Shown one piece after another: positions 8,474 to 61,415 of a stretch of 64,000 nucleotides of DNA (its first letter is position 1; every line of letters begins with the position of its first letter). Under the pieces are notes generated by a model. It worked only from the letters and a program-made list of their open reading frames with translations. It made no database searches and was not told the DNA's origin. This DNA is from Octopus vulgaris (taxonomy: Eukaryota), in contig OX597821.1 of assembly GCA_951406725.2 (NCBI GenBank), positions 42,718,001 to 42,782,000 on the forward strand, written 5' to 3'. A program made the position numbers and the translations under genes.

Positions 8474-11400
8474 CTGAAAAAGAAATAAAACATATTCACA
8501 GGAAATTATTTCATTTAGTCCAGTGAAACCCATGCAAAAATTACAACAGGGATGAAAATAATGCGAATGGTGATAAACCATAACGTTTACTCTTAAAACA
8601 AAGTATAGAAACAACTTCCAAAATTAACTTTTTTATGCAAAACATTGTTTTGTGGAGACAACACATATTTACAACTTTAAAGCAACAATATCATTTCTTT
8701 TGATATATTGCCACTAGTTTGTTGGTCAGCAATGTCAGCTGTCACCAACTACTTCTAATCTCCAGTCATGTGACTGTAAATGGGAAGCTGAAATTAAAAT
8801 TTTAACTACATCATCATCATCATCATCGTCCGTTTTCCGCGCTAGCACGGGTTGGACGGTTTGACCGGGGTCTGGGAAGCCAGGGCTGTACCAGGCTGCA
8901 GTCTGATCTGGCAGTGTTTCTACAGCTGGATGTCCTTCCTAACGCCAACCACTCCGCGAGTGTAGTGGGTGCTTTTTACGTGCCACCTGCACAGGTGCCA
9001 GAGGGGTCTGGCATCGGCCACGATCGGATGGTGCTTTTAACGTGCCACCGGCACGGAAGCCAGCCAAGGCAGCGCTGGCATAGGCCACGTTTGGATGGTG
9101 CTTTTTATGTGCCACCAGCACAAGCCAGTCGAGGCGGCGCTGGCATCGGCCACGTTCGGATGGTGCTTTTTATGTGCTACCGGCACAGAAGCCAGTCGAG
9201 GCAGCGCTGGCAATGGCCATGTTCAGATGGTGCTTTTTATGTGCCACCGACACAGGTATCACAACTACTATTTCCATTGATATTTGTTTCGATGTTCGTG
9301 TACATGCACTTGACTCAACAGGTCTCCTCAAGCACAGCGAGACGTTCCGGGATCCAAGGTACTTTGAATGGGCAGGGGCTATGCGGAACTGGAGCCGGAA
9401 GCATCCCGGGTCTTTGTAGTCACAGCACATCTCCAGAGATCTCGGTCCTTCGCCATTGCCTCAGTGAGGCCCAACGCTCTGAGGTCATGTTTGACTACCT
9501 CATCCCATGTCTTCCTGGGTCTACCTCTCCCCCTGATTCCTTCAACTGTTTGGGAGCGGCACTTCTTCACACATCTCTCCTCATCCATCCGCAGTACATG
9601 ACCATACCATCGCAAGCGTCGCTCTTGCACACCGCATCTGATGCTTCTTATGTCTAGCATTTCTCTCAGGTTGCTTACACTCTGTCATGCATTCACACTG
9701 ACATTACACATCCAGCGGATCATGTTAGCTTCATTTCTTTCAAGTCTACGCATGTCCTCTGCTGTCATGGCCCATGCTTCACTACCATGAAGCATGGCAG
9801 TTCGCACACATGCATCATACAATCTACCTTTTACTCTGAGTGAGAGACCCTTTGTCGCCAGTAGGGGTAGGAGCTTTCTAAACTTTGCCCAGGCTATTCG
9901 TATTCTAGTGGTGACATTCTCTGAGCATCCACCTCCACTACTAACTTGGTCACCCAGGTAGCGGAAACTATCAGCTACTTCTAGTTTCTCCCCCTGGAGT
10001 GTGATGGAATCTGTTTTCTGAGTATTTGTGGTGTCTATTGTCCCTGTGCATCTGCCGCACATGAAAGCTATCTTATCAGTTAACTTCCCTTTGATGTTGC
10101 TGCACCTCTTATGCATCCATAGCTTACACTGGGTGCATCCTATGGAGTTTCTACCTACACCTTTCCTACAGATCGAGCAGGGCCACTTGCCCGATGGGGT
10201 GTGTGCTGAGTTTGCCTTTCTGCTTACTATAACTTTGGTCTTCGCTACATTTACTCTAAGGCCCTTTGATTCTAACCCTCGTTTCCACACCCGAAATTTC
10301 TTTTCTAGTTCCAGTAGTGATTCTGCTATGAGAGCCAGGTCATCAGCATAGAGGAGCTCCCAGGGGCAACCTGTTTTGAATTCTTCTGTTATTGCCTGGA
10401 GGACTATGATGAATAAAAGGGGACTGAGGGCTGAGCCTTGGTGTACACCTACTTCTACCCGGAATTCTTCACTATATTCGTTGCCAATCCTAACCTTGCT
10501 GACAGCCTCTCTGTATAGAGCCTGTACAGCCCTTATTAGCCATTCGTCAATCTCCAGTTTCCGCATCGACCACCAGATAAGGGATCGGGGAACCCTGTCA
10601 AAGGCTTTCTCCAAGTCCACAAAAGCTATGCAGAGGGGTTTATCTTTAGCTAGGTACTTCTCCTGCAGTTGTCGGACCAGGAATATAGCATCAGTGGCGC
10701 TTCTACCCGGCACAAAACCGAACTGCATCTCATCTAAGCAAATTCTCTCCCTAATGAGATGGGTTATGACCCTCTCTGTGACCTTCATCACCTGATCCAA
10801 CAGTTTAATACCCCTGTAGTTATTTCTATCTAGAGCATCACCCTTACCCTTGTAGCAGTTGACTATGGTGCTGCTACGCCAGTCATTGGGTATGACTCCA
10901 TGAACTAGATTATTTGAAACAAAGGTTGAAACAGACATACCACCAACAGCTAAAACACAGTAGCTATCTGTATCCCCACCTCCACACACCAATACATACC
11001 TATTTCTGATTATCAAAATATGAACAAACATTAATAACTGCCAACTCACTGAGGCAAGGTATACATCAGTAACTATAAGCACTTCTTTAAACATTGTGTG
11101 GTAAGAGTTGGCTAATTGCTGAGAAATATTGTCTTAATAAAAGATGAAGATATGTATGATATGGCACTTAAGTATCAGATTGAAACTAAAAGTTTAAGGC
11201 AGTGATCATGTATGGCCAAAACCACAATAATGCCCTAATAAAACTTAACTTCAGAGGTATACAAAGAGATAAAACAAACACATTGAGAACATAACTCACC
11301 TTTAACTGAATGATTGCAAGGAGAAATGGAGATGTGTTCTTGAGGGTTGTCATCAGAATCTACAGTAATAATGAAAAATGACTGTATCAAGATAGTTAAA

Positions 11401-20400: not shown

Positions 20401-23400
20401 AATAAAAAGATAAGAACATCACTTCCACTTGTTCGCAGGTAAGTAGTTCATCATGGAAATGTCAGGTTTTATTTCAAAGTTCAGATATATGTCAGAATGC
20501 AACAATTCTCACAAAAACCTAAACTTGTAAAACTATTCAAGCAATATCGACCAAGAACAAATATTTTAAGCAAGCACTGCTAATTCTACTTGATAGAAAA
20601 TGTAGTAAAATCTCACCAAATCAAACTCTACTATTTAAAAAAAAAATTATTTAAATAAAAAAAACATTTGATAAGTCCAGAATACACTATGGCCTGAAAA
20701 GCAAAAATGAAAAAGCAAAAAACATTTAAAAGAAAAACCAAATCTTGTATTGATTCTTGTGAATGGAAAAGAACAAGATTATTTAAAGATTCCAGTCAAC
20801 ACTACACACACATGTAAACATACACATACACTTGTATGTATATTTCAAGGTGCTCTGTTTGTATAGATGGGTGTACCTGTTACCAATGTAACTCAGTACA
20901 ACTTATTACATAGGTGGATTGTCAGTGACAGCACTACTGCTACCACTCAGAAAAGAGTATTCTAAAGGTTTGCTAAGTCCCAGTTGAACAAAAACAAAAT
21001 CTCTTAGAAGCATGATGAAACAAGCTTAGTATTAACAACTTTCTAACAATATTGAGCAGGAACGCAAAAAATATATTGACATGGTAAACAAGTACACTAT
21101 AAGACCACTTTAGCAGTGATGGATCACCAATTGTTGCTGGAACATCTCAGAAAGGAGTAGATAGGACTCCATAGCTGTGGTGGGTCAATCTGTCTAACCC
21201 GCCTTACTGCATGTACTCAAAACTGTCTTCAATACATGACGCATAAAATCTTTTTTTCTTCTTCTGTTGTCCAAATTCTTTACATAATGTAACAAGGAGT
21301 AGATGAATATGGTTATACTCATCTATGTCCCAAGTTCTGTTTCTGGTGTGTGATTAGTACCCACCACTGCTACAGTAGAAGGATGGCAGCATTAGTAGTT
21401 GACAGTATAAGTATCTTCCCCAGAGAGAGAGACTTGCACCCGTGAGGTGGTATCCTATCAATCAACGTTCCAGTGTCTGAATTAACAGGAAAAGTAGGCA
21501 AAATTAAGAAATATGAAAAGAATAACTAACCCATATGTGATGTCCGGTGTGGGTCTAACAGTGTCTGCTCAATTTCACGGTTCGCTTCCAGTTTGGAGCC
21601 AGGTTCAGCAATGGCGTGACCCAAATCAATCATACGGTCATTCAAGTTGTCATCATCAGCTTCCTTGTAAAGGTACACACCATATTTCGTTGAAGACTTC
21701 ACATCAATTCTCATCTCAAGCTGCTCACTGTCAGTAAATTCTTTAACAATGAAATAAGAAAGATATTTGGAATACGTAAGAGAGGATTAAGAAAAATAAG
21801 ATAGAAAAAGGGTTGTGGTGGTCACATTAGATGCCATGCTGTTGGATGGAAGCATATTAATGATAAAAACTATCAAAGAAGTGTTGGTGAGATAAAGTGA
21901 GGGTTAGTAATGTGTATAGTGATGAATTCAGGGTACAAGTAGGGGTTCACCAAGGATCATTCTTCAGCCCCCTCTTGTTCATCATAATCCTCCAGGAAAT
22001 AACAGAGGAGTTCAAGACAGACCTCTCCTGGAAGTTCCTCTATGCTGATGACCTTGTTCTCATAGCTGAAGCAGTTCCAGAACTAAAGAAATTTCAGGTG
22101 TGGGAGCAAGGTTTAGAATCAAAGGGCCTTACAGTTAATCTAGCAAAAACCAAAGTCATAGCAAGTAGGAAAGCAGACAAATCACAAATCCCTTCAGGTA
22201 GAGAGCCCTACTTGATCTGTAGAAAAGGTGTAGGTAGAAACTCCATAAGATGTACCTGGTGTAGGCTATGGACACATAAGAGGTGTAGCAATATCAGAAG
22301 TAGGTTAACAGGGAAAATAGCTTTTGTGTGATAGGTGCACATGTACAATTAACATTAGAAATATGCAGGAAATAGACTCCATTAAATGCCAGAGGGGAAA
22401 GCTAGAAGTAGTTGATAGCTTCGTTATCTAAGTCAGTAGCAGGGGTGGATGTTCCAAGAGCATAGCTGCTAGAATAAGAATAAGTTGGGCAAAGTTCAGA
22501 GAGCTCCTAGCTCTGTTGGTAATTTAGGGCCTCTCTCTCAGAGTGAAAGGCAGATTGTATGATGCCTGTGTACAAACAGTAATATTACACAGCAGTGAAA
22601 CATGGGCTGTGACTGCTGTGGACATGCGTAGGCTTGAAAGAAATAAAGCTAGTATGCTTCGCTGGATGTGTAATGTCAGTGTGCATGTATGGCAGGGTGT
22701 AGGCATCTTGAGAAAAGCTTGGCATAAGAGGCAACTGCATAGGTATGGTCATGTGATTTATATGGATGTGGACAGTTGTGTGAAGAAGTGTCGATGTTTA
22801 CCAGTGGAAGGAAGCTGTGGAAGAGGTAGACCCAGGAAGACATGGGATGAAGTGGTGAAGCATGATCTTTAAACGTTGGGCCTCACGGAGGCAATGACTA
22901 GTGACTGAGACCTTTGGCGATATGCCCTGCTTGAAAGACCTGTCAAGTCAAGTGAAATCATAGCTGTGGTTATTGTCAGTGTCATGTAAGTGGCACCCAT
23001 GCTGGTGGCATGTAAAAAGCATCTTCTGAGCGTTGGACCTCATGGAGGCAATATGGCTGATGCTGACGTTGCATAACTAGCACCCATGCCAGTGGAACAT
23101 AAAAGACCCCTTCCAAGCGCTGGACATCATGGTGGCAATGACAAGTAACCAAGACCTTTGGCAATATGCCATGCTTGAAAAGACCCATCAAACCAGGTTT
23201 GATATGTATGTACGTATGTGTAGATGTATATATGTGTATACGTGTGTGTGTATGTGTAAATATATATATGTATTATATATGTATGCATGTATAAAAAAAA
23301 AAAGATAAATAGAATAATATAAAGCAAGTTTGAATTTTAACCGTTGTCCCTGAAAAGAGTGTCATATATATATGTATGTGTGTGTGTATGTATATATATA

Positions 23401-36642: not shown

Positions 36643-38545
36643 CACACACACACAGCTGTTGCCAGTGTCATGTAAATGGCACCCATTACACTCTCAGAGT
36701 GTTTGCCATTAGGAAGAGCATCCATCTGTAGAAACCATGCCAAATCAGGCCTGATGTAACCCTCCGGCTTACCAGTTTCAGCATGGAAAGCGATATATAT
36801 ATATATATTTATGTGTTGATTAAAATTTTTCTTTCTACTTGTTCTACTATACATTTCAACATTTCTTGTTTGTTTACATTGGACACAATATTATGTATAT
36901 ATATATATATATATACAGTTGCGGCCAAAATGTTCAGAACAGCATTGTTTTTGTCAGAAAAGTAGGTATAATTTTTTATCAAAGTTGTTTTATATTCTAT
37001 AATTTTCAGAGACAATAAATACGATATTAATTGTTATTGTCTGAGACTTTGGTGTAATTTGAGAGGATAATACAAAAGTTATGGATGATTTAGTGATTTA
37101 CTGCAAAATCCATGGCGGCCAAAATGATCAGAACGGTTGAAAAAATAACAAAATAATCAAAAATGACAGAGAATACTGGAATTATTTAATATTTAGTGTG
37201 AAGCCCTTTAGCTTCAATCACACTTTGACATCTTCGACTGCATGAGGAAATTAAATTTTCAATTTCTTGCTGGGTGATCTTATTCCATTCTTCCTGAAGG
37301 GCATTCCATAATTGCTCGGTTGTTTTAGGATTTCTGGCGTTCAAACGTTCTCCTAGAATATTCCACACATTTTCAATAGGATTGAGATCTGGGCTTTGAG
37401 CAGGCCAATTCATAACAATAACCTTTTCAGCCTTGAGGAAGTTCATGACCACTTTAACCTTGTGACATGGGGCATTGTCCTGCATGAATATGGGTGATCG
37501 CTTAGTTGAATTTTTCAGCTCAGGCAAGGCATGATCTTTTACAAGTTGTTTATAAACTCCTGAATTTACCTTTCCATGTAATCGCACCAAAGGGCCCACA
37601 CCATCCCCAGATATCATCCTCCAAACCATGACACTTCCTCCGCTGAATTTAACACTAGTCTTAAGGCATTTAGGCAACAATTTTTCACCTACTTTTCGAC
37701 GAACGTACCTTATCCCATCTGTGAGCCAAATAACAAACTTAGATTCATCACTGAAATGCACCATTTGCCATTTTTCTTGAGATCACAAAACATGTTCGGT
37801 TGCAAAGATAAGACAACACTTTTTATTCTTGGAGCTGATCAGTGGCTTCACTGCAGGTGCTCTTGCTTGTAGGTCATGTTCAACTAAACGACGAGACACA
37901 GTTTTTCGAGATAAAGTTTTCTTCAGTACAATGCTCATTTCCCGAGAAACAGTAGCAGCAGTTTTAAATTTGCCATTTTAACCAACTTTACCATAGCACG
38001 ATCTTTTCTCTTGGTCGTTTTTCTTGGCCTACCTGTAGACTTTCTTGCTTCACATGAACCACAATCATCGTAGACCTTAAGAATACCGTGAACAACACTT
38101 TTTGACTTGTTAACAATCTTTGCAATAGACCCAATACTTAAATTATCCTTTTTTCGAAGCTTAATAATCTGCTGACGAATTGGTAATGGAGTAAGTGGCA
38201 TTATATTAACGAAGTACACTGCAGATATTCTTACTAATGTTTAGTAAACGAACCATCACGTAAACAAATTCAAAACATTAGGGTTCGCCGGTTAAATATA
38301 CTAAAACAGGGAGTAAAAGCAACCATTCTGATCATTTTGGCCGCCATGGATTTTGCAGTAAATCACTAAATCATCCATAACTTTTGTATTATCCTCTCAA
38401 ATTACACCAAAGTCTCAGACAATAACAACTAATATCGTATTTATTGTCTCTGAAAATTATAGAATATAAAACAACTTTGATAAAAAATTATACCTACTTT
38501 TCTGACGAAAACAATGCTGTTCTGAACATTTTGGCCGCAACTGTA

Positions 38546-38628
<83 letters not shown>

Positions 38629-41600
38629 GAAACTAATAATTTACTCCAATGTACTTGTTATTCCTAGTTTCTCATTTGTATTAATTTCTTCAAGAGTAGT
38701 GTTATTGTAAATCATTAGCTTTTTTAATAAATGAACTCTACAAGGATTGAGTAACACCCAAGTGTTTGTATATGTGTGTGTTGTTCATTGTATGTCCATT
38801 TTTCCATGCTAGCAAGAGCTAGATGAATATGCTATCGAGACATTGTTTTACAGTTGAATGCTGTCCTTGATGGATAATTCTTACCTGTCTTGCAAGTAAG
38901 AGATCTTTTATTTCACATGGCTTCCAAGGGATATGAAGTGACTGGTTATAATGACACTGCCATTTATAACTTTCATACAAGCAATCACAGATGTAAACTA
39001 ACACACCATGATGATCTTTCAGTTCCAGTCTAATAACCCCACTCACAATACTTTATTTGGTCACATGCTATTGCGGAAGTCATGCCAAATGTAACACACA
39101 CCAGGACTGAACTCAAAATCACTAGGAAGTGAAGTGCTCAACCATAAAACCAAGCCTGCACCTATCATATTTCTGTAAAATAAACTTGGTATAAGTAAAG
39201 AGATATGCTATGACAATTAAAATATATATTTGTATATATCGATGCATCAAAGACTGAATCAGTTCTTATTCAAAGTTCATCCTCTCCTAAATAAGTCAGA
39301 GGACCACATTTTGCTTATTCATTTCATTCTTGGTTTGGAGTTCTATGACTAGATGTCCTTCCTATTACCAATCACATCGTTACATTCATAACAGCTGATG
39401 CAGAAATACATAAACGAGGGAAAATTTTGTTTTAACAGTGTGTCTTTCATGCTACACATTCTTTTTGTTAAATTTTTTTGTTCCAAGTCAACTCTCTGAT
39501 CAAAACACATGACCCTGTTCCCATTGTAAACTTTAACATCAACTAAGATTCAACTTGTATTTAGTGTTATAGGCATATAATGTAGTTTAAAGACACTTAC
39601 CATAAATCTGATACAAAGGATTCAGAAGTTGGGTCTTCGGCTATTTCACAATGGATGGCTAAAGGTGGTAAGTCAGCAAGAAAATGAAACAATTCTTTGA
39701 GACAGTCCCTAGGTACTACTTTTGTAAGACCACAGTCAATATCAAAAACTGTTAAATCTTCTTTGGTGACAGCTTTTAGGATGGCTCGATAAACATTCTC
39801 ATCAGGAGCAACAACAGCATATAAAACACCAATTTGGTATTCACTTACAGCAGCTTCAGTAGGAGCTAAACTTCGGTAAATTTTTTCCATTAGATCTTTT
39901 AGCTTATCAATAATAGGCACTTTTGGAAACATTTTTATCCAGAATTCCTTTTGAGATACAACACTGCAGATTTGAATATTCAGCAATTCTCCACAGACCA
40001 GGTTCCACCGGTACTGTTGTTTCTGCAGCCATGCAATTACATCCATAACAGAACGGTCAACAATAACATCGTTTGAAAGTTCAACTTTGTCATAGACTTC
40101 AGCTATTTCTCGTTCTACAAGAAGTTCAGCAACATTCTTACCTTTCAGTGTTAAGTTTATCACATATCCTGTACCACCAGGGTGCTGCAGAATGCTGCAA
40201 ATTTCAGCTGTCATCAACTGATTTAGGCATAAATTCTGAAAGATACTGAAAGAGTTCTGGGACCATGAATTATTTTTGCCTTCCACATAGGCCAAATGAC
40301 ATTCAAATGCTTGCATTGGGAGTTTTGTAAAGTCTTTATGCAATGGCCAAATGCTTTTGCGTTCAACAGTTTCTGTATTACCAAAATCAACAAGTAGAAT
40401 ATCACAGCTAAACTTTTTCAAAGATTGTACTTTGCCCCGGTAAAATTTACCATCTTTAGCAGACCTGACAACACACAGAGAGGACAGCTGGAGATCCACA
40501 GCCTTACTCCCTTTATCACAATTGCTACAATACAGGTTCATTTCTTTCTCGAGCTGTTTCAGAGAAACAACACTCTCTTCAGGCTGACACCAAAAGTTCT
40601 CAGGTGTAACTAGGTGGGTTACATATACACCAAGGCATTCAAACTGAAGAAGATCCAATGGCTGAAGAATATCTGTAAAAGAAAAAATTTGATTTGCAAT
40701 GCGGCTGCTAGCAAATGGTAACTCTGAATCTGAAATAAGAGTCATGTGATAACCAGATAGATGGTAATTCAGAACTAAGAGGCAAACTATCATTACAGGT
40801 TGTCAATCAGTTTTCAATGTGCCACATTAATAATGTTTAATTAGGGTATATCAATGAAATAGGTAAAAAAAAAGTTTGTTGTTTCTGTGAGATATTACAT
40901 TAAATAATACTGTAAAAGGAAAATAAGTTACTTTACAGAAGCAGTAAATGTTGCTACTATCATTCATTCTTTGTGATTTTTTTTTCTTTTGGAAAGTTAA
41001 TCCTTATGGCATCACTTCATTAATCTCTAGCTACAATTTTTAAGTTGTGGGCATTAGCAGAGTAAAACTAAGAATGCTATAGGTTACTGGGTCACTCAAA
41101 TAGCAAAGACCTAAAAGCAAAACGTGTACTAGAATATGACATACAAAATGTAGATAGTAGATCTAAAAGGACAACTTTAAAGATGCTACGTGAAGAAGCA
41201 GCTGGAAAGAAAGAAGTTTGGAGAGATGTTGGTGTTAAACAATTTCTGGTTAATCAAACTGTACTGTCAGAAGACAATACTGAAGGCAAAAAGTTTTAGA
41301 AATGAAATTGAACACTTACGTTTATCTGTATTAGGGTTTTGGATAATATTTTGCATTGAGACCTGATTAGAAACAGTTTCAGCAAGTAACTGTCCATCTA
41401 GAGAGTAGAGTTCAACAAGATATGGCTTAGATTTAGATTCAAAGCTTACAAACAGGGATTTTGCATTTGTAGAGAGATGGAACCTGCTTTGCAGGCGGTC
41501 ATTCCACATTTGGCAACTTTTTAAGGTGCATGGCAGAGCAAGGGGAGGAAGTGTAGTCAAGTTGGTATCAGCAGTAATATTAAGTACAGAAGATGCAGGA

Positions 41601-44600
41601 ACATCTTTCAAATACTCTCCAGTGTCAATACATTTTATGTCAAGTAAGAGGTTAGGTTTTGCACTAATAATAACACCACGGCATAAATTAGAGGAATTGG
41701 GGTTAAACACACTACAGAGGGTATTTATTTTAAGTGATGGGCCACAGTAATTGACTGGTTGACAACAGAGTTTTTTGGACAGTTCTGAGTACTGTTCTTC
41801 CATGGTTGCAAGCCTGATATAGAAAATTCCAGGCTTTTTACTGTCTGTGATATGTGTCATGCGGCACTGAACTTTTTCAGAAGGCACAGCAGTGTTAGCA
41901 AAAAGTTTTGAAACAAACAACACATCTGGCATTGAATCTTTAGCTTCAAAAACATTTTCATCTTCAAATATGACATCCAAGTAGGATTTTGGTGGCTCCA
42001 CAGCACTGGACGGTTGTGTCAGCATAGCTGATTCAGTGATAAGATTCTTAGCACATCCTGATTTGATAAAGAGAGAAGCAATGTTGTTACCATCATCAAT
42101 CAAAATACACATTCCTTGGCCAATATTTTGGATGGTTAGTGTTTTGTTGAAAACTAAGTCTTCAAATATATCACAGGCATTTCTTGACCATTCCTCTTCA
42201 ATGGGCATTACATTAGCCAAAGAAAATTTATAAGCCAAAAATGGAATAGACTGAAACTTTTCAGCGAGTGGTTTGATGCCTTGGAGGGAAACTCTTTCCT
42301 GATTACCATAATCAACAAAACGAACAGCAGCATCATCAGTAGTGTAATCAACTATAACTGCACGATACCATTGATCATCAAGGTAATATTTAGCACAGCA
42401 AAACATTCCCACTTCAACTAAGGTCAAAGACTTCTCCAACCAATACTGCTTCGAATATTCACTATTTAATTCGTCAGCTAAGCTTTCTATCACATCATCA
42501 TCATCTAAAAACTGGACATAAAAACATTCTGGTGTGTATACATAGGAAACAGAGATTTCTTTGATGTCTCCAGTTGGTAGTTTATCGTCATTGGAAATAA
42601 CGGAAAGCTTTGAATTACTTCGTGATATTGTATCAGGTAAGTGAAGAGCAGTTGATGTCTGAGCAGCAGAGCTAGATATGAACTGTTCTAAGTGGACAAC
42701 AATAGATGTATTATGGTCCACAATCAGATCCACTTCATAAATTTCAGTAGTCTGGTCATAATTTAAGAACTTGGCCTGTACTGATTTTTCGAGAACAAGT
42801 TCTGAAAAAACACCATTTACAATAGAGAGGTGAGAATATACATCAGACAACTTACAGTGGGAAGCTAACCGAGGTAGTTGCATATATTTGGAAGTCATCT
42901 GACGAATATTCTCAAAGGTTACTCTCTCAGTATTTCCATAATCGACAAAGAGAACATCAACATTGTTGTGTTGTATGTCGAGCACTAGTGCTCGGTACCA
43001 AGTCTTATTCCCCAAGTTTTTGGCAATACATGGGTTGCCAACAACCAGATCACCTGGTTTAATATGGGGAAGAGTCGAGGAGTTGCCATCTGCCACCAAT
43101 GAATCCATCAGCATTTCTAATTCCTCAGAAAAACCAACTAACTGGCACCAGAAATCAAAAATGGAAGTGTAGTAAGAGACTACTACAGCAGCTGGTTTAT
43201 CAAAACGTGGTTGTATAACTTTGTAAGTTTGAATGATATTTTTTGACTGGCGATGTCCATTTGGTTCCTGATGTTGTTGAGGCTTAACATTTACTATTGC
43301 AGCCAGTCCTAACTGTAAGAATTTCTCAGCTATGGAAACTCCATTGAGTTTCAGTTCTACATGGAATATACTTTGAACCTGTTTCTTGAAAGTACACAGG
43401 ACATTTTCTTCAATGTTTTCCAAAAATAGTTTTGCATCCTGTCCCCATTCTCCAAAAGAGATTGGTTTAATGTCAATCAAGCGACAACGCACAGCTTGAC
43501 AACAATGTCTGGTGAATACAGGAACAAGTGGTTTCAGATTAGTTATAGGTGTAACTTCATCGTTGCCAAAGTCCACAAACCGGACACGTACATTAGAAGC
43601 AAATATCTCTTCAACAACTGCTCGATACCATGCAGAGTCTTCACTGAACTGGGCAACTACAAAAGTTCCAACAGTTACAAGGCCTTCATATCTTTCTTTT
43701 AATTTGTCATAATAATCTTGCATATTTTGTACTAGTTCATCTAGCTGATGTTCATTGCTGACCAGTTGTAACCAAAAAGCATCTGGACTATTGACCCAAG
43801 ATATAACAACAGGTAAACTTGTACCATTCGCTATGGTCAAGGGTTTTAAAGTATTTGTATTTTCCACAATGGAAACTAGATTCTTTTTGGACAGTGGGTC
43901 AAACAATTCAAGGACGTAAGTTTTCTGTAAACATGACAATACTTTTGCAGTGACTCGGTGATCAAGTGCTAAGTCCTGTAATGCATTTATCTGAGATTCA
44001 GACCAAATAGTTCCGGGAGGCAAGTTGAGTGAACATTTCACAGCTATAGTAGGTACATCAATAAAGCGATGTGGCAACATTCTCAGTTGAGAAAATGGTA
44101 AAATTTCAGCATTTCCGTAATCAACATAGAAAACGGCTGCTTGGTCTTGTTTCACATCTACTATTTCAGCTCGATACCACATGCCATCATCAGTAAATTT
44201 AGCTAGACATGGTGTTTGAGATGGCGGCATAGTCTTAAAGGTGCCATATGCATTGTCACACTGGTTTTCATTCAGTTCCTTCATCAAGCTTTTCAAAGCA
44301 TTGCCCATACAGACAGGCTGACACCAAAATTCATGTGGACTTATCAAAAATATCATACAAATATCTAAGCTGTCACCAACATTTAATTTGTAGTTTTGGT
44401 AACCCACATTTGCATATGAATCACTTGTAGAACCATTGACATTAGGGAGCAAATTCCTTTGACTTCGACCATTCTTTACAGGAGACCGTCCTTTTGGTGA
44501 GATTCTTTTGCTTGTTGAATTTCTTGATTCTGATGCAACAGTGACCTTTAAATTGGACCTATCACGACCAACACTGACCGATCGAAGAGACGGGTCACAT

Positions 44601-46601
44601 TGTAGTTGATCATCGTCATCATCATCTTCATCATTACCAGCTAAACAAAGACTGTTAGTGAGCTGACCAAATATGAGGTTGATACAGACATCTTCATCTT
44701 TACTCAGTTCAACTGCATGGATGCCTGATGAACTGACAGACTTGAAAGTGGCAGTGAAAAACTGTTCGAGAACTAAGTCTTCAAACTGAGCAATGTGTTC
44801 TGGTGACCAATAACTCCGAACATTTGTGACTCCATGCAGACAACATGGAATTCCTTGAGCAGGCATCTCCATAAATTCTGGTTTTGTCACTTTAATAAGA
44901 TGCTTGGGAACAAGTTCAATGTTGCCATAATCTATGAAGAATACTTCTACAATATTGTTGGTCAGTTCTCCTGAAATAAAACAAAAGAAAAAAAAAGCAA
45001 TGATAATATTAGTATCAAGAAATAACTTGAGTACAGAATTTGAAGAAGTGAGGAATGTATTTCAAAATGTCAAAACCCTAATAAACATTAACCCTTTCGT
45101 ATTTGACACTTTAGCATTCAGATTACTGTCAAATATAATGCTTATTTATTCATACTGTTTTCAATTAACCAGGTATTATCTTGTAGCTTTGAAATTTCAA
45201 AGATGTGACTTTATTTTTAGAATGACATTATAAGGTAGATGGCAGGGGCCAGATCTAGCCAGTTTGAACATAAAACAGGTAGAATATTTTGGCCAGATAT
45301 GGCCGATTTGAATACTAAAGGGTTAAACCAGTCCCATTTGGCCCCTCATACCTATCCTACAATATCATTCTAAATATATTCAATCACATAAAAATCTCAA
45401 AGATACAAAATTATGCATGATTAATTCAAAACAATACGAATGAATAAACATTACCTTTGACAGTTTAATCCGAAAGTTAAAGTGTTAAAACTAATATATG
45501 TCAGCACTATCCCACGAAAAGAAGAGTTTGGTTATAAGGAAATACAGAAAGTGAACAATTCTCTAAGAATCACATAAAGTATGATTGAACCAGAAGAGGG
45601 TTGAGTTAAGAGTCAAACACAAAAATGCTTTGGGATTATGTGACCAAAAATAATAAAAACCTATAAGTGAGAAGGAGAAAGCGATAGAAAGAGAAAGGAA
45701 GAGAGTTCACACTAATTAGATTGTTATTAGATCACCAATGTTATCATTACAGAAAGTTTACTATGTTTATAACAAATTAGATTCTTATTTTACTGACATT
45801 AGTCACTGGACTGTTGGCACACATGTTGGTGCACAAAATGAGGGTTTTAGTCAATTAGATCAAACCCAATACTTACTTCAGTCCTCTATTTAATGAATGC
45901 CTAGTATTCCTTCAATGTAAAGGAACATAAATCATCACACTGTTTTATAGACACAATTATACATATACAAACTTATTTTGTTTCTCATTCGTTTTTATAT
46001 GCCAGAATGAGTTAGGTGAGTATATTATTGAGACGTTTTACAGCTAGATACCCTTTCTGTCGTTAACTATTATTTGATTTTCCTTTTTCAAGTAAAGAAT
46101 AACTTTTCTCATGTATCATTGAAGGTGAAAAACCAGTAGATAACCGGCTGATGATAGGAGAAATGGCAGTAATGTTCCTGCCTGTAGCTAAGTGAATTTT
46201 CAGAGAAGCACAAATGCAAGCTAATAGACACACAATGAGTTTCTTTCAGATTTTGTTCTCCAAATCTACGCATCAGGTTTTGGTTGGTCTAAGACTATAG
46301 AAAGACACTTGCCCAAGGTGATGCAGCGTGAAACTGAACCTGAAACCAAATGATTCAGAAGTGAACTTCTTAACTACACAACCATGTCTGCATCCACACA
46401 TACAAATATTATACCTCTCTCTCTCTCTGCATGTATGTATGTGTGTGTGCATATATATATATATATATATAGCCTGCCCACCTGATCAGCAGAATGGTGT
46501 CATTTAAATAGTACAACATTGCAAAGTGTACTGTGACCTGTGATGCATAACATCTGATAACCCAGTTTATACATAAATACATATGTATGTGTGTGTGTGT
46601 G

Positions 46602-52828: not shown

Positions 52829-53238
52829 GTCAGGCCAAGAAAGAAAGATCATATATATATATAGTTTGTTAGATTGGTAGAATTGTAAGGAAGTTTGACC
52901 AATAGCTTTGCAATATTTGTTTCAAAATCTCACCATTGCCTAGTTATGTGGTAGATTTAATCTGTTCACTCAGCTTAACACCTTGGGTACTTTTTGTAGA
53001 TCCCTCCCTACCTTTATTTTAAGCATTTAGGCCAGGTTTCTATATTGAGGATCCCTCCTTTCTATCAGTCTTGGAAGCCTTGAAAGGGGTTAGGGACATG
53101 GTTCTCCCTCCCAATGAGGAAATCAGTTGCATCGCCCCCAGTGCTTGACCAGTACTTGATTTATCAACCCTGAAAGGTGCTGATGCCACGTAAAAAAACA
53201 CTTATAAATATGTATATACATATATGTGTGTATACATA

Positions 53239-53291
<53 letters not shown>

Positions 53292-53318
53292 CCGCACCCC
53301 CTCCCCTATATATATATA

Positions 53319-54419
53319 CCTCCGCACCCCCTCCCCTATAAAACCCTACGCACGAGGCTTGACCGCCCTTATTATTGCTTTCCTCCTGGCTATAACACAC
53401 GAACTACGAACCGCAGGATGATGAATAATATCAGCTAAGTCATATTTAAGTTCACGACCTGTCCCTCTTTCATTGTTTTTGCAAGTATTATTATCACCAT
53501 CAAGCCTTATTATTGTGTCCCCATATATTATCGTTATCGTTGTCCTTCGTCTCAAATGCTAGCTGAAGCATATAAACTTTCGCTCACAAAAGCTTATTCA
53601 CACGACCGCAAAAAAACATCTCGTCTCAAATCTGGTCTTTCTGTCGCTTAATTCTCTAACCCATCTTTTCCCAACTTCCACTCATAGAAACTTATGCACA
53701 CGACCGCAAACCTTTCCATCTCAAATCTTGTCTTTCTTACTTTCGTCTAAATCTCGTCTTCTCCCAGTGCCCGGTGCCGTTTTTGCCCCTCTGTTATCAC
53801 CATGTCTCTCTCCCTCCCCTCTCTCTCTCTCTCTCTCTTTCTTTCTCTGCGGTGTCGTTTTCTCCCTCTGTTATCGCTGTCTCTCTCTCTCTCTCCCTCT
53901 CTCTCTATATATTTCACTTTCACTCGCTGCCACAGGCTTAGCCAATACGCTCTGCCTTCTACCCACACCTCTGCACCCCCTCCCCTATAAAACCCTACGC
54001 ACGAGGCTTGACCACCCTTATTATTGCTTTCCTCCTGGCTATAACACACGAACTACGAACCGCAGGATGATGAATAATATCAGCTAAGTCATATTTAAGT
54101 TCACGACCTGTCCCTCTTTCATTGTTTTTGCAAGTATTATTATCACCATCAAGCCTTATTATTGTGTCCCCATATATTATCGTTATCGTTGTCCTTCGTC
54201 TCAAATGCTAGCTGAAGCATATAAACTTTCACTCACAAAAACTTATTCACACGACCGCAAAAAAAACATCTCGTCTCAAATCTGGTCTTTCTGTCGCTTA
54301 ATTCTCTAACCCATCTTTTCCCAACTTCCACTCATAGAAACTTATGCACACGACCGCAAACCTTTCCATCTCAAATCTTGCCTTTCTTACTGCGTCTAAA
54401 TATCGTCTTCTCCCAGTGC
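53319..54419 (+). repeat. Direct duplication in the RTE 5' leader (about 450 bp, period 649 bp)
   Basis: 53319-53770 and 53968-54419 are near-identical; the ORF track shows twin ORFs at 53346 and 53995. Confidence 0.92.
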
Positions 54420-54605
54420 GCAGTGCGCCCGCCCTCCCACCAGTACCGGAAGTCCTTATCTCACCTTGCTCTCTTTTGCTTTTCTTCCATGAACACCTAA
54501 AGGCCTTAAACCAATACCACCCCTTCTATATATGGTGGTGACCATACGGCGCAAAAACATGTTAGTGCAGTGTAACAGGTTGAACTTAAGTTCATTGCTT
54601 TGCTT

Positions 54606-57600
54606 ATGAATTCTGCCAAATGCGAGTTTTCTTCTTCTTTTCAGGTACATGACGGCACTGCTCCCCGTCCCTGGTCCTCTCGGGTCAATACCTTCCACCC
54701 CCTCAGGGTGGGCACCCTCAACGCTGGCACACTGAAAGGTAGGTCTGGCGAGATAGTCGAGATGCTTGAACGGAGACGTGTTGATGTATGTTGTATGCAA
54801 GAAATAAGGTGGAGAGGAGGATCTGCTAGGTTCCTCACGGGCAAGGAACACAGGTACAAGATTTTCTGGGCAGGGAACACTGACGGGGTTGGTGGCGTGG
54901 GTATACTTATCGCTGAGAAATGGATAGATAGAGTAATTGAGGTAATCAGAGTAAGTGACAGAATACTTAAGATTAGAATAGTGCTTCATAATAGATTAGC
55001 AACCATTATATCGGCCTATGCCCCTCAGCCAGGGCTACCCGATGGACAGAAAGACAGTTTCTATGACACCCTACTGCAGACCACCTCATTGACGAACGAC
55101 AGGGACCTTCTCTTTGTGGCTGGTGATTTCAATGGGCATGTTGGACAACATGCTGGGGGCTTCCATGGCGTGCATGGAGGCTACGGTTATGGTTCCCGCA
55201 ACGAGGAGGGAACCAGGCTGCTTGAGTTCTGCGATGCGAATAGTCTTATGATCTGCAACACTAACTTCAGGAAACCAACAAGCCACCTGGTCACCTACCG
55301 ATCGGGCCGGCATACTAGCCAAATCGACTACATCCTTGCCAGAAAAAGGGAAAGATGGCTGCTTATAAATGCCAAAACCTTCCCAGGCGAAGAATGCACC
55401 CCACAACATAGACTGGTAGTTAGTGACTTTAGGATCAGGACTAAGAGGGCGACTAGAAGACGACCAACATGGAGAAGAAGGGTCTGGAAGCTTAAAGACC
55501 CTGCGAATGGACAGAGATTTAGAGATATGTTACTTGAAGCCTTTGACGAAGTGGAAGGGGGTATAGCTACACATGGGGTAGAAGACAACTGGACGTTTCT
55601 GAGGGACAACCTGCTGAAAGCCGCTGACCAGATCTGTGGCTGGTGCAAAGTCCCCTTAAGACCCAAAATAACGTGGTGGTGGAACAATATTGTTGACAGG
55701 GCTATTAGACAAAAGAAACAGGCTTGGAAGGCCTGGAAGAACGGTGGTAGCAGGGAAGTGTATCAGACTGCCAGAAGGGAAGCTAGGAGACAGGTCTATC
55801 TAGCCAGAGGGGAAGCAGATAAAAGAAAGTTTGCCAATGTCCTGCGCCGTGAGGATGAAAGACTTGAGGTATTTCGTGTTGCAAGACAGTGTGTGAGAGA
55901 GAATCGTGATGTGGTAGGAGAGAAATGTGTTCGCATGGAGGATGGTTCACTTGCGCTAAATGAGGATGCAAAGAGAGAAGCTTGGAGACGCCACTATGAA
56001 AGGTTGCTGAATGAGGAAAATGAATGGGATAAAGAGAGTCTGCCGAATGTTGACCCAACAGAGGGACCAGCTATCCGAGTTGATAGTTCCGTGGTAGCTA
56101 AGGCAATTAGAAGCATGAAGACAGGGAAAGCCCCAGGCCCATCAGGAATTACTGCAGAGATGCTCAAAATATCTGGTAGTGTCGGCTATAGCATAGTCAC
56201 CCGTATAGTTAACCAGGTGATACACGAAGGAGTCATACCCAATGACTGGTGTAGCAGCATAATAGTCAACTGCTACAAAGGTAAAGGAGATGCCCTAGAT
56301 ACAAATAACTACAGGGGCATCAAGCTGTTGGATCAGGTAATGAAGGTTACGGAGAGGGTTATAGCCCAGTTAATTAGAGAGAGAGTTAGCTTAGATGATA
56401 TGCAGTTTGGGTTCGTGCCAGGGAAAAGTACTACTGATGCTATATTCCTGGTAAGACAGCTGCAGGAGAAATACCTAGCCAAAGGTAAGCCCTTGTACCT
56501 GGCTTTTGTTGACTTAGAGAAAGCCTTTGACAGGGTCCCCCGATCCCTTATCTGGTGGTCAATGAGGAAACTAGGGATAGATGAATGGTTAGTGAGAGCT
56601 GTGCGAGCCATGTACAGAGACGCAGCTAGTAAGGTGAGGGTTGGCAACGAGTACAGTGAAGAATTCCGGGTAGAGGTTGGGGTCCACCAAGGTTCAGTCC
56701 TCAGCCCCCTCCTATTTATCATAGTCCTCCAGGCAATAACGGAAGAATTTAAGACAGGATGCCCCTGGGAGCTCCTATATGCTGATGACCTTGCTCTAAT
56801 TGCTGAGTCACTATCAGAACTGGAGGAGAAGTTTCAGGTGTGGAAACAAGGATTAGAGTCGAAGGGCCTTAGAATCAACCTAGCCAAAACCAAAGTCCTA
56901 ATAAGTAGGAAGGTGGACCAACCACAAACGACTTCAGGTAGATGGCCCTGCTCGATCTGTAGAAAAGGTGTAGGTAGAAACTCTATAAGGTGCACCAAGT
57001 GTAAGCTATGGACACATAAGAGGTGCAGCAATGTCAAAGGTAGGCTAACTGGGAAGATAGTTTTCGTATGTGGCAGATGCTCAGGAGAAATAAACACTGG
57101 AAATGTGCAGAGACCAACTTCTACCACGTTCCAGGGAGACAAACTAGAAGTAGTTGATAGCTTCCGCTACCTTGGAGACCAAGTTAGTAGCGGGGGTGGG
57201 TGTGCTGAAAGTGTAACTGCTAGAGTAAGAATAGCCTGGGCAAAGTTTAGGGAGCTCTTACCCCTGCTGGTGACAAAAGGCCTCTCGCTCAGAGTAAAAG
57301 GCAGACTTTATGATGCATGTGTACGTACAGCCATGCTACATGGTAGTGAAACATGGGCCGTGACTGCTGAGGATATGCGTAAGCTCGCAAGAAATGAAGC
57401 CAGTATGCTCCGATGGATGTGTAATGTCAGTGTTCATAATCGTCAGAGTGTAAGTACCTTGAGAGAAAAGTTGAACCTAAGAAGCGTCAGTTGTGGTGTG
57501 CAAGAGAGACGGCTGCGCTGGTATGGTCATATGACGAGAATGGCTGAAGATAGTTGTGTGCAAAAGTGCTACACCCTAGCAGTTGAGGGAACCTGTGGAA

Positions 57601-57818
57601 GAGGTAGACCCAGGAAAACCTGGGACGAAGTGGTGAAGCACGACCTACGAACTTTAGGTCTCACCAAGGAAATGACTAGAGACCGAGACCTAACCCGTGG
57701 CATAACCCGTGGCCCCTACCTAGGACGTAGTCAGTCCACCTGTGCATACCTTCCTTCTTGTGACACTTGTGAAGACCTGTTGAGGCAAGTGAAAATCAAA
57801 CAAAATCAAAATAGATGA
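54606..57818 (+). CDS. RTE ORF: APE endonuclease + reverse transcriptase with embedded PHD finger (about 1,070 aa)
   Basis: APE motifs GTLN, QE, SAYAP, GDFNGH, QIDYIL, QHRLV; RT motifs NYRGIKL, QFGF, FVDLEKAFDRV, GVHQGSVLSPLLF, YADD, FRYLG; RTE C-terminal RLRWYGH and GRPRKTW. No internal stops. First ATG at 54606 (the ORF track starts at TTG 54600). Confidence 0.95.
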   Translation: MNSAKCEFSSSFQVHDGTAPRPWSSRVNTFHPLRVGTLNAGTLKGRSGEIVEMLERRRVDVCCMQEIRWRGGSARFLTGKEHRYKIFWAGNTDGVGGVGILIAEKWIDRVIEVIRVSDRILKIRIVLHNRLATIISAYAPQPGLPDGQKDSFYDTLLQTTSLTNDRDLLFVAGDFNGHVGQHAGGFHGVHGGYGYGSRNEEGTRLLEFCDANSLMICNTNFRKPTSHLVTYRSGRHTSQIDYILARKRERWLLINAKTFPGEECTPQHRLVVSDFRIRTKRATRRRPTWRRRVWKLKDPANGQRFRDMLLEAFDEVEGGIATHGVEDNWTFLRDNLLKAADQICGWCKVPLRPKITWWWNNIVDRAIRQKKQAWKAWKNGGSREVYQTARREARRQVYLARGEADKRKFANVLRREDERLEVFRVARQCVRENRDVVGEKCVRMEDGSLALNEDAKREAWRRHYERLLNEENEWDKESLPNVDPTEGPAIRVDSSVVAKAIRSMKTGKAPGPSGITAEMLKISGSVGYSIVTRIVNQVIHEGVIPNDWCSSIIVNCYKGKGDALDTNNYRGIKLLDQVMKVTERVIAQLIRERVSLDDMQFGFVPGKSTTDAIFLVRQLQEKYLAKGKPLYLAFVDLEKAFDRVPRSLIWWSMRKLGIDEWLVRAVRAMYRDAASKVRVGNEYSEEFRVEVGVHQGSVLSPLLFIIVLQAITEEFKTGCPWELLYADDLALIAESLSELEEKFQVWKQGLESKGLRINLAKTKVLISRKVDQPQTTSGRWPCSICRKGVGRNSIRCTKCKLWTHKRCSNVKGRLTGKIVFVCGRCSGEINTGNVQRPTSTTFQGDKLEVVDSFRYLGDQVSSGGGCAESVTARVRIAWAKFRELLPLLVTKGLSLRVKGRLYDACVRTAMLHGSETWAVTAEDMRKLARNEASMLRWMCNVSVHNRQSVSTLREKLNLRSVSCGVQERRLRWYGHMTRMAEDSCVQKCYTLAVEGTCGRGRPRKTWDEVVKHDLRTLGLTKEMTRDRDLTRGITRGPYLGRSQSTCAYLPSCDTCEDLLRQVKIKQNQNR

Positions 57819-57976
57819 ACATCAATGGAATTTGTATCTTTGTGGTACCAGTGCCAGTGGCACACAAGAATACCATCCGAACGTGGGCGTAGCCAGTACC
57901 GCACCGACTGGCCTCCATGCTGTGGGCACGTAACAATCACCATCCAATCATGGCCGATCGCCAGCCTAATATGGCT

Positions 57977-58444
57977 CCTGTGTCGGTGACACATAAAAAA
58001 ACACCATCCGAGCGTGGTCGTCTGCTAGCCTTGTCTGGCACCTGTGTCGGTGGCACATAAAAACACCATCCGAGCGTGGCCGTTCGCCAGCCTCGTCTGG
58101 CACCTGTGTCGGTGGCACATAAAAAAAACACCATCTGAGCGTGGTCGTCTGCCAGCCTTGTCTGGCACCTGTGTCGGTGGCACATAAAAACACCATCCGA
58201 GTGTGGCCGTTCGCCAGCCTCGTCTGGCACCTGTGTCGGTGGCACATAAAAACACCATCCAAGCGTGGCCGTTCGCCAGCCTCGTCTGGCACCTGTGTCG
58301 GTGGCACATAAAAAAACACCATCCGAGCGTGGTCGTCTGCCAGCCTTGTCTGGCACCTGTGTCGGTGGCACATAAAAACACCATCCGAGCGTGGCCGTTC
58401 GCCAGCCTCGTCTGGCACCTGTGTCGGTGGCACATAAAATCACC
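57977..58444 (+). repeat. Tandem array of 7 units of about 62-65 bp in the RTE 3' UTR
   Basis: Unit cacataaaaacaccatccgagcgtgg(tcgtct/ccgttc)gccagcct(t/c)gtctggcacctgtgtcggtgg, in two variants ordered A-B-A-B-B-A-B. Confidence 0.95.
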
Positions 58445-58608
58445 CACTACACTCTCGGAGTGGTTGGCGTTAGGAAGGGCATCCAGCTGTAGAAACACTG
58501 CCAGATCTGACTGGCCTGGTGCAGCCTTCAGGCTCCCCAGACACCAGTTGAACCGTCCAACCCATGCTAGCATGGAGAGCGGACGTTAAATGATGATGAT
58601 GATGATGA

Positions 58609-58700
58609 TATATATATATACGTATATACATATGTATATACACATATATATATATATATATATATATACGTATATACATATGTATATACATATATGTATG

Positions 58701-58732
<32 letters not shown>

Positions 58733-58931
58733 TGTATATATGTATATATATATGCATGTTTTATATATGTATATATGTATATATATGTATGTATATATGC
58801 ATATATATGTATGTATATATGCATATATATATGTATATATATGTATATATATGTGTATATATATATATGTATATGTATGTATATATATATGTATATGTAT
58901 GTATATATATATATGTATATATATGTGTATG
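58609..58931. repeat. Compound (TA)/(TATG) microsatellite between the RTE and CR1-like tails
   Basis: Direct inspection of the sequence. Confidence 0.95.
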
Positions 58932-58932
58932 T

Positions 58933-61415
58933 TTTTTCATTTCATCTAGTTTCAGCTCACGAGCTGTGGCCAATCTGGGGAACCGCCATTCGGTGTTGCT
59001 CCATGATTTTACTTCACGAATGCTTTTTAGCAATTGACATTTGGTGCATGAGAGAGTTTGATGCAGCTGCCCTCATCTGCACCTCCTGCTGTGAAGTTGG
59101 TTCATCCGGGACACCTGACAGGAAGAGGTCTGACTTTATTTTGAAGACATCTGCATCCACCCCATGCAGGTCTCTCAGGTCCTTCGGGAGGATATTGAAG
59201 AGTTGTGGACCTCTGAAGCCCAGGCTATTGCAGTATCTTGTCCGACATCTTGATGGCAAATTTGGAGTCCTTGGCACTATGCAGTGGCGTCCAGTTCTAG
59301 TATTTGTGTAACTCTCGATGCCAAAGTTTGGGACAAGTCCTTCCAGATGTATATTATGGCATATCTTTCTCGCCTACGCTCTAAGGAATAGAGTCTTAAT
59401 CTCTTCAGTCTTTCCCAATAGCTTATATGCTGCATAGAGGCTATCTTCTTCATGTAGCTTCGTTGGATTGCCTCAAGTTCTGAGATTAATTTGACACTGG
59501 TTGGTGACCATAGCTGAGAGCAATAGTCAAAGTGGCTTAGGACAAGTGTCCTCCAGAGGACCATCATGGTTTCCTGTTCTAAAAGCTCTAAGAATCCATC
59601 CGGTCAGCCGCCTACATTTCATTGCCAATTTAGCAACATGCACATGAAAGGTTGCATCATTACTCATGTAAATACCCAGGTCTCGCACTGATTGTGCCTC
59701 TGGGATTGCAATATCTCCAGGTCTAGTGTATTTATTGGATATTGCATTTAGTTTTGCATGCTGATAGCATAAAGCTTGAAACTTTTCAGCATTGAACTGC
59801 ATGCTATTCTTTTCAGCCCACTTGTATATTTCGTCCAGCTCACATTGCAGGTGCATAGTGTCTTCAGGGTTCTGTATTACCAGCGAAACTTTTGTATCAT
59901 CTGCATAACTTGTGATCGTGGCTCTCTGCGTGACTGAAGGCATGTCTGAGGGGGCCATTATGAACAGCAGTGGTCCCAAAACAGTACCTTGTGGAACATC
60001 ACTCACTATTTGCGTGTTATTGGAGGTGGCCCCATTGGCTACTACCACCCGACTTCTATCCTTCAGAAAGTCATGAAGCCATTCTCCCAATTTTCCAACT
60101 ATGCCAAGATCACGCAGTTTATGACATATCATTCCATGATCGACTTTATCAAAGACCTTTGCAAAGTCGAGATATATCACTTCCACACTGGAGTGGTTGA
60201 GCAGTTGTTTCAGCACCCAGTTATAGTGCTGTAGGAGCTGAGTTAGGCAGCTTCTTCCTGGTCGGAAACCATGTTGGGTGTCAGGCAGCAAGTCATTTTC
60301 TTCAAGGGAGGTGATTAGTTTCCTTCTGACTATTCATTCCATGACCTTGCTGATGTGTGAGGTCAGAGCGATAGGTTTGTAGTTCTTGGCCTCCGCTCTG
60401 CAACCTCCTTTATGAATAGGGCATATTTTACCCTCCTTCAGTTTTCTTGGAAGTTTGCCAGTTGCAAGGAAGCTCTGAAAGAGGAACTGCAGTGGTCTTG
60501 CTAGGACTCGCTTACATACTTTAAGAAGGATTGCTGGGAATCCATTGGGGCCAGTAGCTGAGTTTGGGTTCATTTCATCTATAGCCCTTATTACATTGTC
60601 TTCCTTTATATTGATGTAATCAATCATCATTGCCTCTGATTTTAATCTGCAGTGGTAAAGAAGTCAGTTGGATTGCTGACTTGAAAATGCCCTAGGGGTG
60701 GAGTGAAAATACTTTTGAATTGCTCATTTAGTATTTCACTTATCCTCATTGGATTTCCTGTGAGTGTACCATCTTTTTCAAGGAGTGGCCATATCCGACA
60801 GTGCACCGGAGCTGTTTCTTTGGCAAACTTGTAGAAAGCTCTGGGGTTAGATTTTATGTTGTCTATAGCCCAGGCTTCTTTGTCTGCTCTTTCTTTTTCA
60901 TGGGAGAGTTGCAGACATTTTTCAATTTCCAACAGTTTTATTTTCAGGCAGGACTTTTCACTGCTTTCAATTTGTTTGTTTAGGCGATTTGAAACTTTTG
61001 TAAGCCGTCTCATAAGAATTTTCTTCTCTCTGGGGATTTTGTTCTTGTGTACAGTGGCCTTTCCCACTGGGACACATTTGTAGCATATGGCTTGCATTAC
61101 AGACATGAATTGTTGAAGTTTCATGTCGATGTCTGGTGAGGAGAGACATTTAGGCCAGTTTTGTTTGAGGATCTCTTTCTCAATTTGTTTCCAGTTTGCC
61201 TTATGGAAGTTCAAGCTGGAAGGATTCTGAGTTTCTTGCAGGCTGCATGTCCATGCTTTCCTTTGACCCATACATGGTCAGCTCTACCATGTTGTGATCC
61301 GAGAGTAGCGTCGGTGTCACTTTCACATAATGGATGAGATCTATATTATTTGTGAAGCAGAGATCCAGTATGTGACCTGCCCTGGTTGGAGTACTATTTC
61401 CTCCATGTACAGTGT
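58933..61415 (-). mobile_element. Decayed CR1/L2-group LINE (end of APE + RT), 5'-truncated
   Basis: Successive frames give [86 protein letters not shown]; several frameshifts; short (ATGAA)n-like tail. Confidence 0.9.

Follow-up and report, generated by a model that had tools for sequence, protein, structure and literature searches.

A predicted PHD finger inside the reverse transcriptase of an octopus RTE retrotransposon and its spread across an RTE branch

The window analysed here, a stretch of 64,000 nucleotides from the Octopus vulgaris genome (contig OX597821.1), contains an apparently full-length long interspersed nuclear element (LINE) whose single open reading frame (ORF) carries a cysteine- and histidine-rich insert within its reverse transcriptase (RT). 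What is this insert, is it peculiar to one family, and what might it do in the palm of a polymerase? The element is assigned to the RTE clade, which includes the BovB and Rex3 types, on the basis of motifs and architecture, the RT tree comprising unnamed relatives. An APE-type endonuclease and the RT are joined in one main ORF, the 3′ tail is a short tandem repeat [(GAT)n in 36 of 40 fetched copies], and the APE-RT-thumb order, microsatellite tail and 5′ truncation of copies are shared with RTE-clade LINEs.

The order of motifs in the ORF is NLAKTKVL-ISRKVDQPQTTSGR-WPCSICRKGVGRNSIRCTKCKLWTHKRCSNVKGRLTGKIVFVCGRC-...-LEVVDSFRYLG. An earlier note, made from the sequence of the window, had placed a C4HC3 finger between the two outer motifs, and its ligand positions agree with ours (codons at 56949, 56958, 56991, 57000, 57015 for the His, 57024, 57069 and 57078; the Trp of W-x-H is encoded at 57009). 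The C4HC3 spacing arose in none of 20,000 shuffled ORFs. Two of the analyses proposed in that note favoured a PHD finger, the profile scan on a fragment only: PF00628 scored 24.7 bits on a 126-amino acid (aa) piece (cut-off 24) and fell below the cut-off on the whole ORF (19.6 bits) and on a second copy in the window (23.6 bits), while C1 domains scored lower than PHD on the finger. Structure prediction yielded a PHD fold, hanging from a beta-hairpin of the RT palm in the model; its best structural match is the PHD of Pygopus, which is likewise the best language-model neighbour. Two zinc ions would be bound, judging from the ligand residues. The second copy, which the note had located at about 10040-10180, indeed retains all eight ligands (Table 1).

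The insert lies in the loop between RT motifs 6 and 7. From KT to YLG this loop measures about 92-98 aa in the branch with the finger vs about 30-41 aa in PHD-less RTE-clade LINEs; in the window it is ~63 aa longer than the usual ~31 aa, as expected from the suggestion that a normally short linker had received an insertion. A protein search with ORF residues 700-900 gave 661 matches among 1860 candidates. The query and the best 120 of the 661 matches share all eight ligands without exception (121 of 121 sequences), as well as the F, Y, L and G of motif 7, and 118 of them also pass the strict spacing pattern. Because this query favoured insert-bearing proteins, a second search of 50%-cluster representatives used an RT query stopping before the insert. 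Among the 150 matches listed, 89 spanned the RT core and motif 7; the finger was present in 13, all of which retain the eight ligands and the Trp, and absent from 76, most of them near-copies of one family. RT identity across the finger-bearing branch is 45-100%, and 35-49% to PHD-less relatives.

A quick maximum likelihood tree, restricted to the RT core and built from 67 rows once near-copies had been removed and 35 first-search matches sampled, required three changes of the finger label, vs a mean of 15 after shuffling, and contained at least one nested lineage without the finger. A single origin of the 49 finger-bearing rows was not rejected by the approximately unbiased test (p-AU 0.68; the outgroup was omitted from this test, as were two long or aberrant rows), a result compatible with one origin and no proof of it. 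The finger thus marks a whole RTE branch rather than the one family envisaged in the earlier note. The finger-bearing relatives with a named host come from two octopuses and, as a gene model, from a catfish, and a metagenome scan found 79 related loci, 38 of them with an intact finger pattern. The catfish model, slc22a21 of Neoarius graeffei, contains a fused fragment of a PHD-bearing RTE, probably through misannotation, or else exonisation.

A column-wise comparison of two octopus subfamilies, represented by 41 and 30 copies, gives a ratio of nonsynonymous to synonymous substitutions (dN/dS) of 0.16 in the finger (8 nonsynonymous differences over 110 sites, 10 synonymous over 28; Fisher p 4e-4), 0.06 in the RT core, 0.12 in motif 7 and the thumb, and 0.75 in the linker C-terminal to the finger. 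The low value in the finger, set against that of the linker, indicates that the finger is under purifying selection in active lineages while the adjoining linker drifts; both this ratio and the invariant ligands answer the checks on conservation that the note had outlined. Insertion of the finger is branch-wide and the finger is maintained by purifying selection; the PHD fold of the insert is predicted.

The place of the insert has a counterpart in R2 elements, one that the earlier note does not mention (here and below, PMC numbers refer to excerpts of the papers cited). In R2Bm, an insertion between motifs 6 and 7 termed 6a (residues 672-677), described in the excerpt as R2-specific, reads an upstream target motif, contacts DNA via His and Lys, and blocks nicking when deleted (PMC10499050); in vertebrate R2, 6a wedges into upstream DNA (PMC11601368). 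The RTE finger is also an insertion between motifs 6 and 7. In our alignment to R2Bm, the last aligned pair is residue 666 and the Leu of KTKVL, encoded at 56898, and an ungapped extrapolation over six residues places 6a on the N-side linker entering the finger. Both inserts are basic and sit at about the same place, but 6a is a base-reading loop of ~6 residues in a site-specific element with a restriction-like endonuclease (PMC10499050), whereas the finger is a putative two-zinc domain and belongs to an APE element that is dispersed; the resemblance is one of position, not descent. As the insert starts at about the 6a site, the analogy suggests an orientation in which the finger points to the upstream target DNA while target-primed reverse transcription (TPRT) proceeds, and a finger in such a loop would probably hold the enzyme on chromatin where it inserts.

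What the finger might hold there can be approached through Pygopus. The K4me2 pocket of Pygo1 has W366, Y341 and D352 as walls and V350 and A356 as floor, I357 lines the T3 pocket, and E360 is required for binding (PMC2726290). These positions were mapped via a Pygo2 alignment onto 137 finger-bearing proteins. The Trp is kept in 135, an aromatic at Y341 in 130, Val in 124, Ser or Ala in 136, and Ile or Val in 135; the Trp and second aromatic typical of methyl-lysine readers are retained almost throughout. H3K4me2/3 readers combine a cage Trp that precedes the His with another aromatic residue; the Trp is an invariant cage wall of H3K4me3 readers and is lacking in readers of unmethylated K4 according to the excerpt of PMC3241642. 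The RTE finger has this Trp and is without an acidic cluster before the first Cys, unlike H3K4me0 readers; at most there is an Asp five residues before Cys1, which occurs in 56/121 sequences and is absent from the window copy.

Other features weigh against a histone-tail reader. The positions of Y341, V350, A356, I357 and W366 are kept, but D352 and E360 are lost: Glu occurs at 360 in 9/137 proteins and any acid in the loop in 8/137. The EVND motif of the Pygopus PHD is not preserved either, its V being kept and its D position variable and non-acidic. An acid at the H3R2/A1 site is common, not universal, among H3K4me2/3-reading PHDs; in the RTE finger, the three positions around Cys3 contain one in 14/137 proteins. 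Pygo leaves R2 in solvent and RAG2 is described as having no acid there (PMC3241642). The finger is net basic in 121/121 sequences (mean +5.8), with conserved motifs R/K-K-G before the loop, H-K-K/R and G-R/K-L, so that it is basic where the Pygopus PHD is acidic. The Pygo loop is two residues shorter than that of the RTE finger, and the segment after the sixth ligand is shorter in the RTE finger. The residues thus point both ways: the hydrophobic part of a methyl-lysine pocket is kept, while the surface would suit DNA more than a basic tail. A bivalent nucleosome anchor would fit both, and PZP domains bind H3 as well as DNA (PMC10124903).

We therefore favour, tentatively and with slightly less than even confidence, a role of the finger as a target-side chromatin anchor during TPRT, combining a predicted methyl-lysine pocket with a DNA-binding surface. 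The loop with the finger would face upstream target DNA, as 6a does in R2; its Lys/Arg surface would hold that DNA, and the Trp/aromatic/Val/Ser/Ile pocket would take a methylated lysine, most likely H3K4me2/3, of a neighbouring nucleosome. The exact bases, (TA)n in the octopus genome, would be chosen by the endonuclease and the 3′ tail repeat, while the finger would keep the enzyme longer on chromatin and might favour integration in regions that carry the mark. The more specific proposal, that this RTE branch carries in its palm, at an R2-like loop, a histone-methylation reader coupling TPRT to H3K4-methylated nucleosomes, is possible and to be regarded as doubtful.

The same charge could mean that the finger, sitting in the 6-7 loop, no longer reads histones and simply clamps nucleic acid by its basic surface, be it upstream target DNA or element RNA, with histone marks irrelevant. 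The net basic finger with its conserved motifs, the loss of both Pygo acids, and the His and Lys contacts of 6a with DNA (PMC10499050) all agree with this, yet plain DNA binding has no obvious need of an exposed Trp in the cage position and a second aromatic. Moreover, basic charge and histone reading may go together, as the PHD stretch of PHF13, an H3K4me2/3 reader according to the title of the paper, is also net basic (+4 by count). We consider a clamp rather unlikely. A pocket that persists despite the loss of the H3-specific acids could also serve a non-histone partner, such as a methyl-lysine or peptide on a host factor for repair, import or silencing, or another part of the element's own protein, in which case the finger would act in assembly or second-strand steps and not in targeting. 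PHD fingers including that of Pygo have such partners (PMC3241642), and RTE elements are described in the excerpted paper as lacking a large ORF1 for such functions (PMC4120745). Set against this, no candidate partner was found and the R2 analogy turns the finger towards target DNA, which makes a partner of this kind improbable in our estimation.

The anchor reading leaves the choice of bases to the endonuclease and the tail repeat, and the insertion sites bear on this. Among 40 young copies of the PHD-bearing family, (TA)4 lay within 30 nt of 25/40 5′ junctions and 20/36 3′ junctions (four copies had no tail), vs 7.2% of 11,740 flank 30-mers; in a second PHD-bearing subfamily it was found at 9/16 3′ ends. 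A PHD-less octopus family had it at 6/38 5′ and 8/33 3′ ends (2/40 loci dropped; Fisher p 3e-5 and 0.014, respectively). This control fits the published RTE-2_OV of O. vulgaris, having 1109 aa from the first Met, a C-terminal C2H2 finger and no PHD; it has an (ATT)n tail and several intact 1123-codon frames, with 94-98% identity between copies. Another PHD-less family, with a (GTAT)n tail, showed (TA)4 at 2/20 5′ and 2/12 3′ ends; alternating purine-pyrimidine repeats, mostly tail-matching (TATG)n, flank 14/20 of its 5′ ends. It is a case of tail-matched microsatellite targeting, and such targeting consequently needs no PHD; pairing of tail and target is a published model for RTEs (PMC6007223). 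The PHD-bearing family inserts strongly at (TA)n although its own tail is (GAT)n. Among metagenome relatives, 12 of the 79 loci show a tail (one insertion each, one duplicate dropped), and (TA)n follows it in 0/12, seven of which have an intact finger. These relatives share a short pre-tail motif (CG/C-TAA-type) with switched tails (GT, TTG, AGTG, ACTA, GAT, TC). Since relatives elsewhere have no (TA)n preference, TA reading is probably not what the finger does: the preference is real, and the endonuclease and tail are a better source of it. That the finger reads (TA)n and so creates the microsatellite preference, as the (TA)4 excess over background and the PHD-less control might suggest, is highly improbable given the metagenome loci and the (GTAT)n-tail family.

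Finger-deleted copies made up 7/30 loci in a search with a PHD-less query. One deletion junction is shared, by two copies ~2 Mb apart on G000:C11 (L102 and L103) with different 5′ ends and flanks and an identical in-frame deletion of the whole PHD; it sits at a short microhomology, and no third copy was found. The nested finger-less lineage and the success of PHD-less RTEs would suit a tolerated passenger without ligand, kept since an unfolded insert would harm the RT, but persistence down to 45% RT identity, conservation of surface positions (Trp, Asn, basic residues) besides the ligands, and the confinement of the sole shared deletion junction to two copies make this very hard to credit.

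The features of the element and its copies are listed in Table 1. The 5′ untranslated region (UTR) contains a 649-bp tandem duplication and the 3′ UTR a ~62-bp minisatellite, the (GAT)n tail stopping at 58609. A small deletion near 57690 carries the frame on into the 3′ UTR, replacing ~11 natural C-terminal residues. In the 5′ part of the ORF (54620-54740), a polypyrimidine tract and CAG resembling a splice acceptor are followed by an out-of-frame ATG starting a short overlapping frame.

Table 1. Coordinates of the RTE element, its domains and its further copies in the window.
Feature	Position	Strand	Remarks
(TA)n microsatellite, 5′ junction of element	53200..53288	.	
RTE element, apparently full-length	53289..58609	+	5′ UTR, ORF, 3′ UTR, (GAT)n tail
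Single long ORF, stop to stop	54576..57818	+	1080 aa; APE endonuclease, RT, PHD, thumb
APE-type endonuclease domain	54714..55346	+	Pfam PF03372 and fold
RT core, motifs 1-6	56301..56903	+	Pfam PF00078; YADD at 56778
Whole RT motif 6-7 loop	56901..57143	+	N-linker 56901-56942, PHD, C-linker 57081-57143
PHD finger (predicted), C4HC3	56943..57080	+	46 codons; W-P-C at start, W-x-H
RT motif 7 (FRYLG)	57162..57176	+	3′ of insert
(TA)n-rich microsatellite, 3′ junction of element	58610..58930	.	
PHD of second copy	10048..10185	-	5′-truncated, other subfamily; 81% DNA identity over 1463 nt
Third copy	22113..22479	+	decayed, first Cys lost, frameshifted; absent from the earlier note

Elsewhere in the window, 29388-31595 and 39597-45061 (-) hold large exons of a multi-Tudor gene, presumably TDRD6-like, with six Tudor stretches in one exon and, at 30333-30916, a tandem repeat of 30-bp units that encode PETEAVTSMS/IP. 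A Tc1/mariner-like element occupies 36892-38567, where 248-nt inverted repeats (95%) flank a transposase-like ORF (37186-37782, -). CR1-like LINE fragments at 59527-61277 (-) served as the outgroup of the tree.

Chromoviruses, which are long terminal repeat (LTR) elements with a chromodomain at the integrase C-terminus, likewise fuse a chromatin-reader-type domain to a retroelement integration protein, but differ from the RTE element in their LTR type, the C-terminal place of the domain and their integration chemistry. Other LINEs also carry fingers. RTE-2_OV, like the studied family an octopus RTE with a single ORF and a zinc finger, is a different family: the excerpt of PMC9115989 describes an ORF of 1109 aa with a terminal C2H2 finger rather than an internal PHD. 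PHDs of CR1/L2 LINEs lie in ORF1 or at the ORF N-terminus, upstream of APE and not inside the RT palm; help in genome targeting was proposed for them, the excerpted paper noting no functional studies as of 2014 (PMC4120745). In the ESM Atlas, 78% of the members of one cluster of APE-RT proteins carry zf-PARP, which makes the cluster a further LINE lineage whose DNA-binding finger is unusual. Automatic annotation flags PHD and RVT_1 on many of the relatives and labels octopus fragments ‘PHD-type domain-containing’, so that the signal is already in databases without a description. Full-text searches outside Repbase, Dfam and subscription journals, where the insert may be noted, showed no description of an RTE with a PHD or of an RT containing one, as judged from the search listings and from excerpts of PMC9115989, PMC3849965 and PMC4120745; the RTE branch with an internal PHD is apparently undescribed.

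For the question of how APE-type LINEs select chromatin, this branch offers a compact test case, with one ORF, one separable domain, one Trp and PHD-less sister lineages. In this successful lineage the RT 6-7 loop accommodates a domain of ~50 residues with a predicted fold. The same loop has been elaborated in two unrelated LINE groups, R2 and the finger-bearing RTEs, which bears on the retargeting of RTs for gene insertion. If TPRT is indeed coupled to H3K4 methylation, LINEs would have in this branch an equivalent of chromovirus targeting, and an R2-like loop would be able to accept a whole targeting domain. The family is very abundant in the octopus genome (27,136 first-look candidates, a figure that is not a copy number), and any chromatin bias of its insertion would therefore have shaped that genome.
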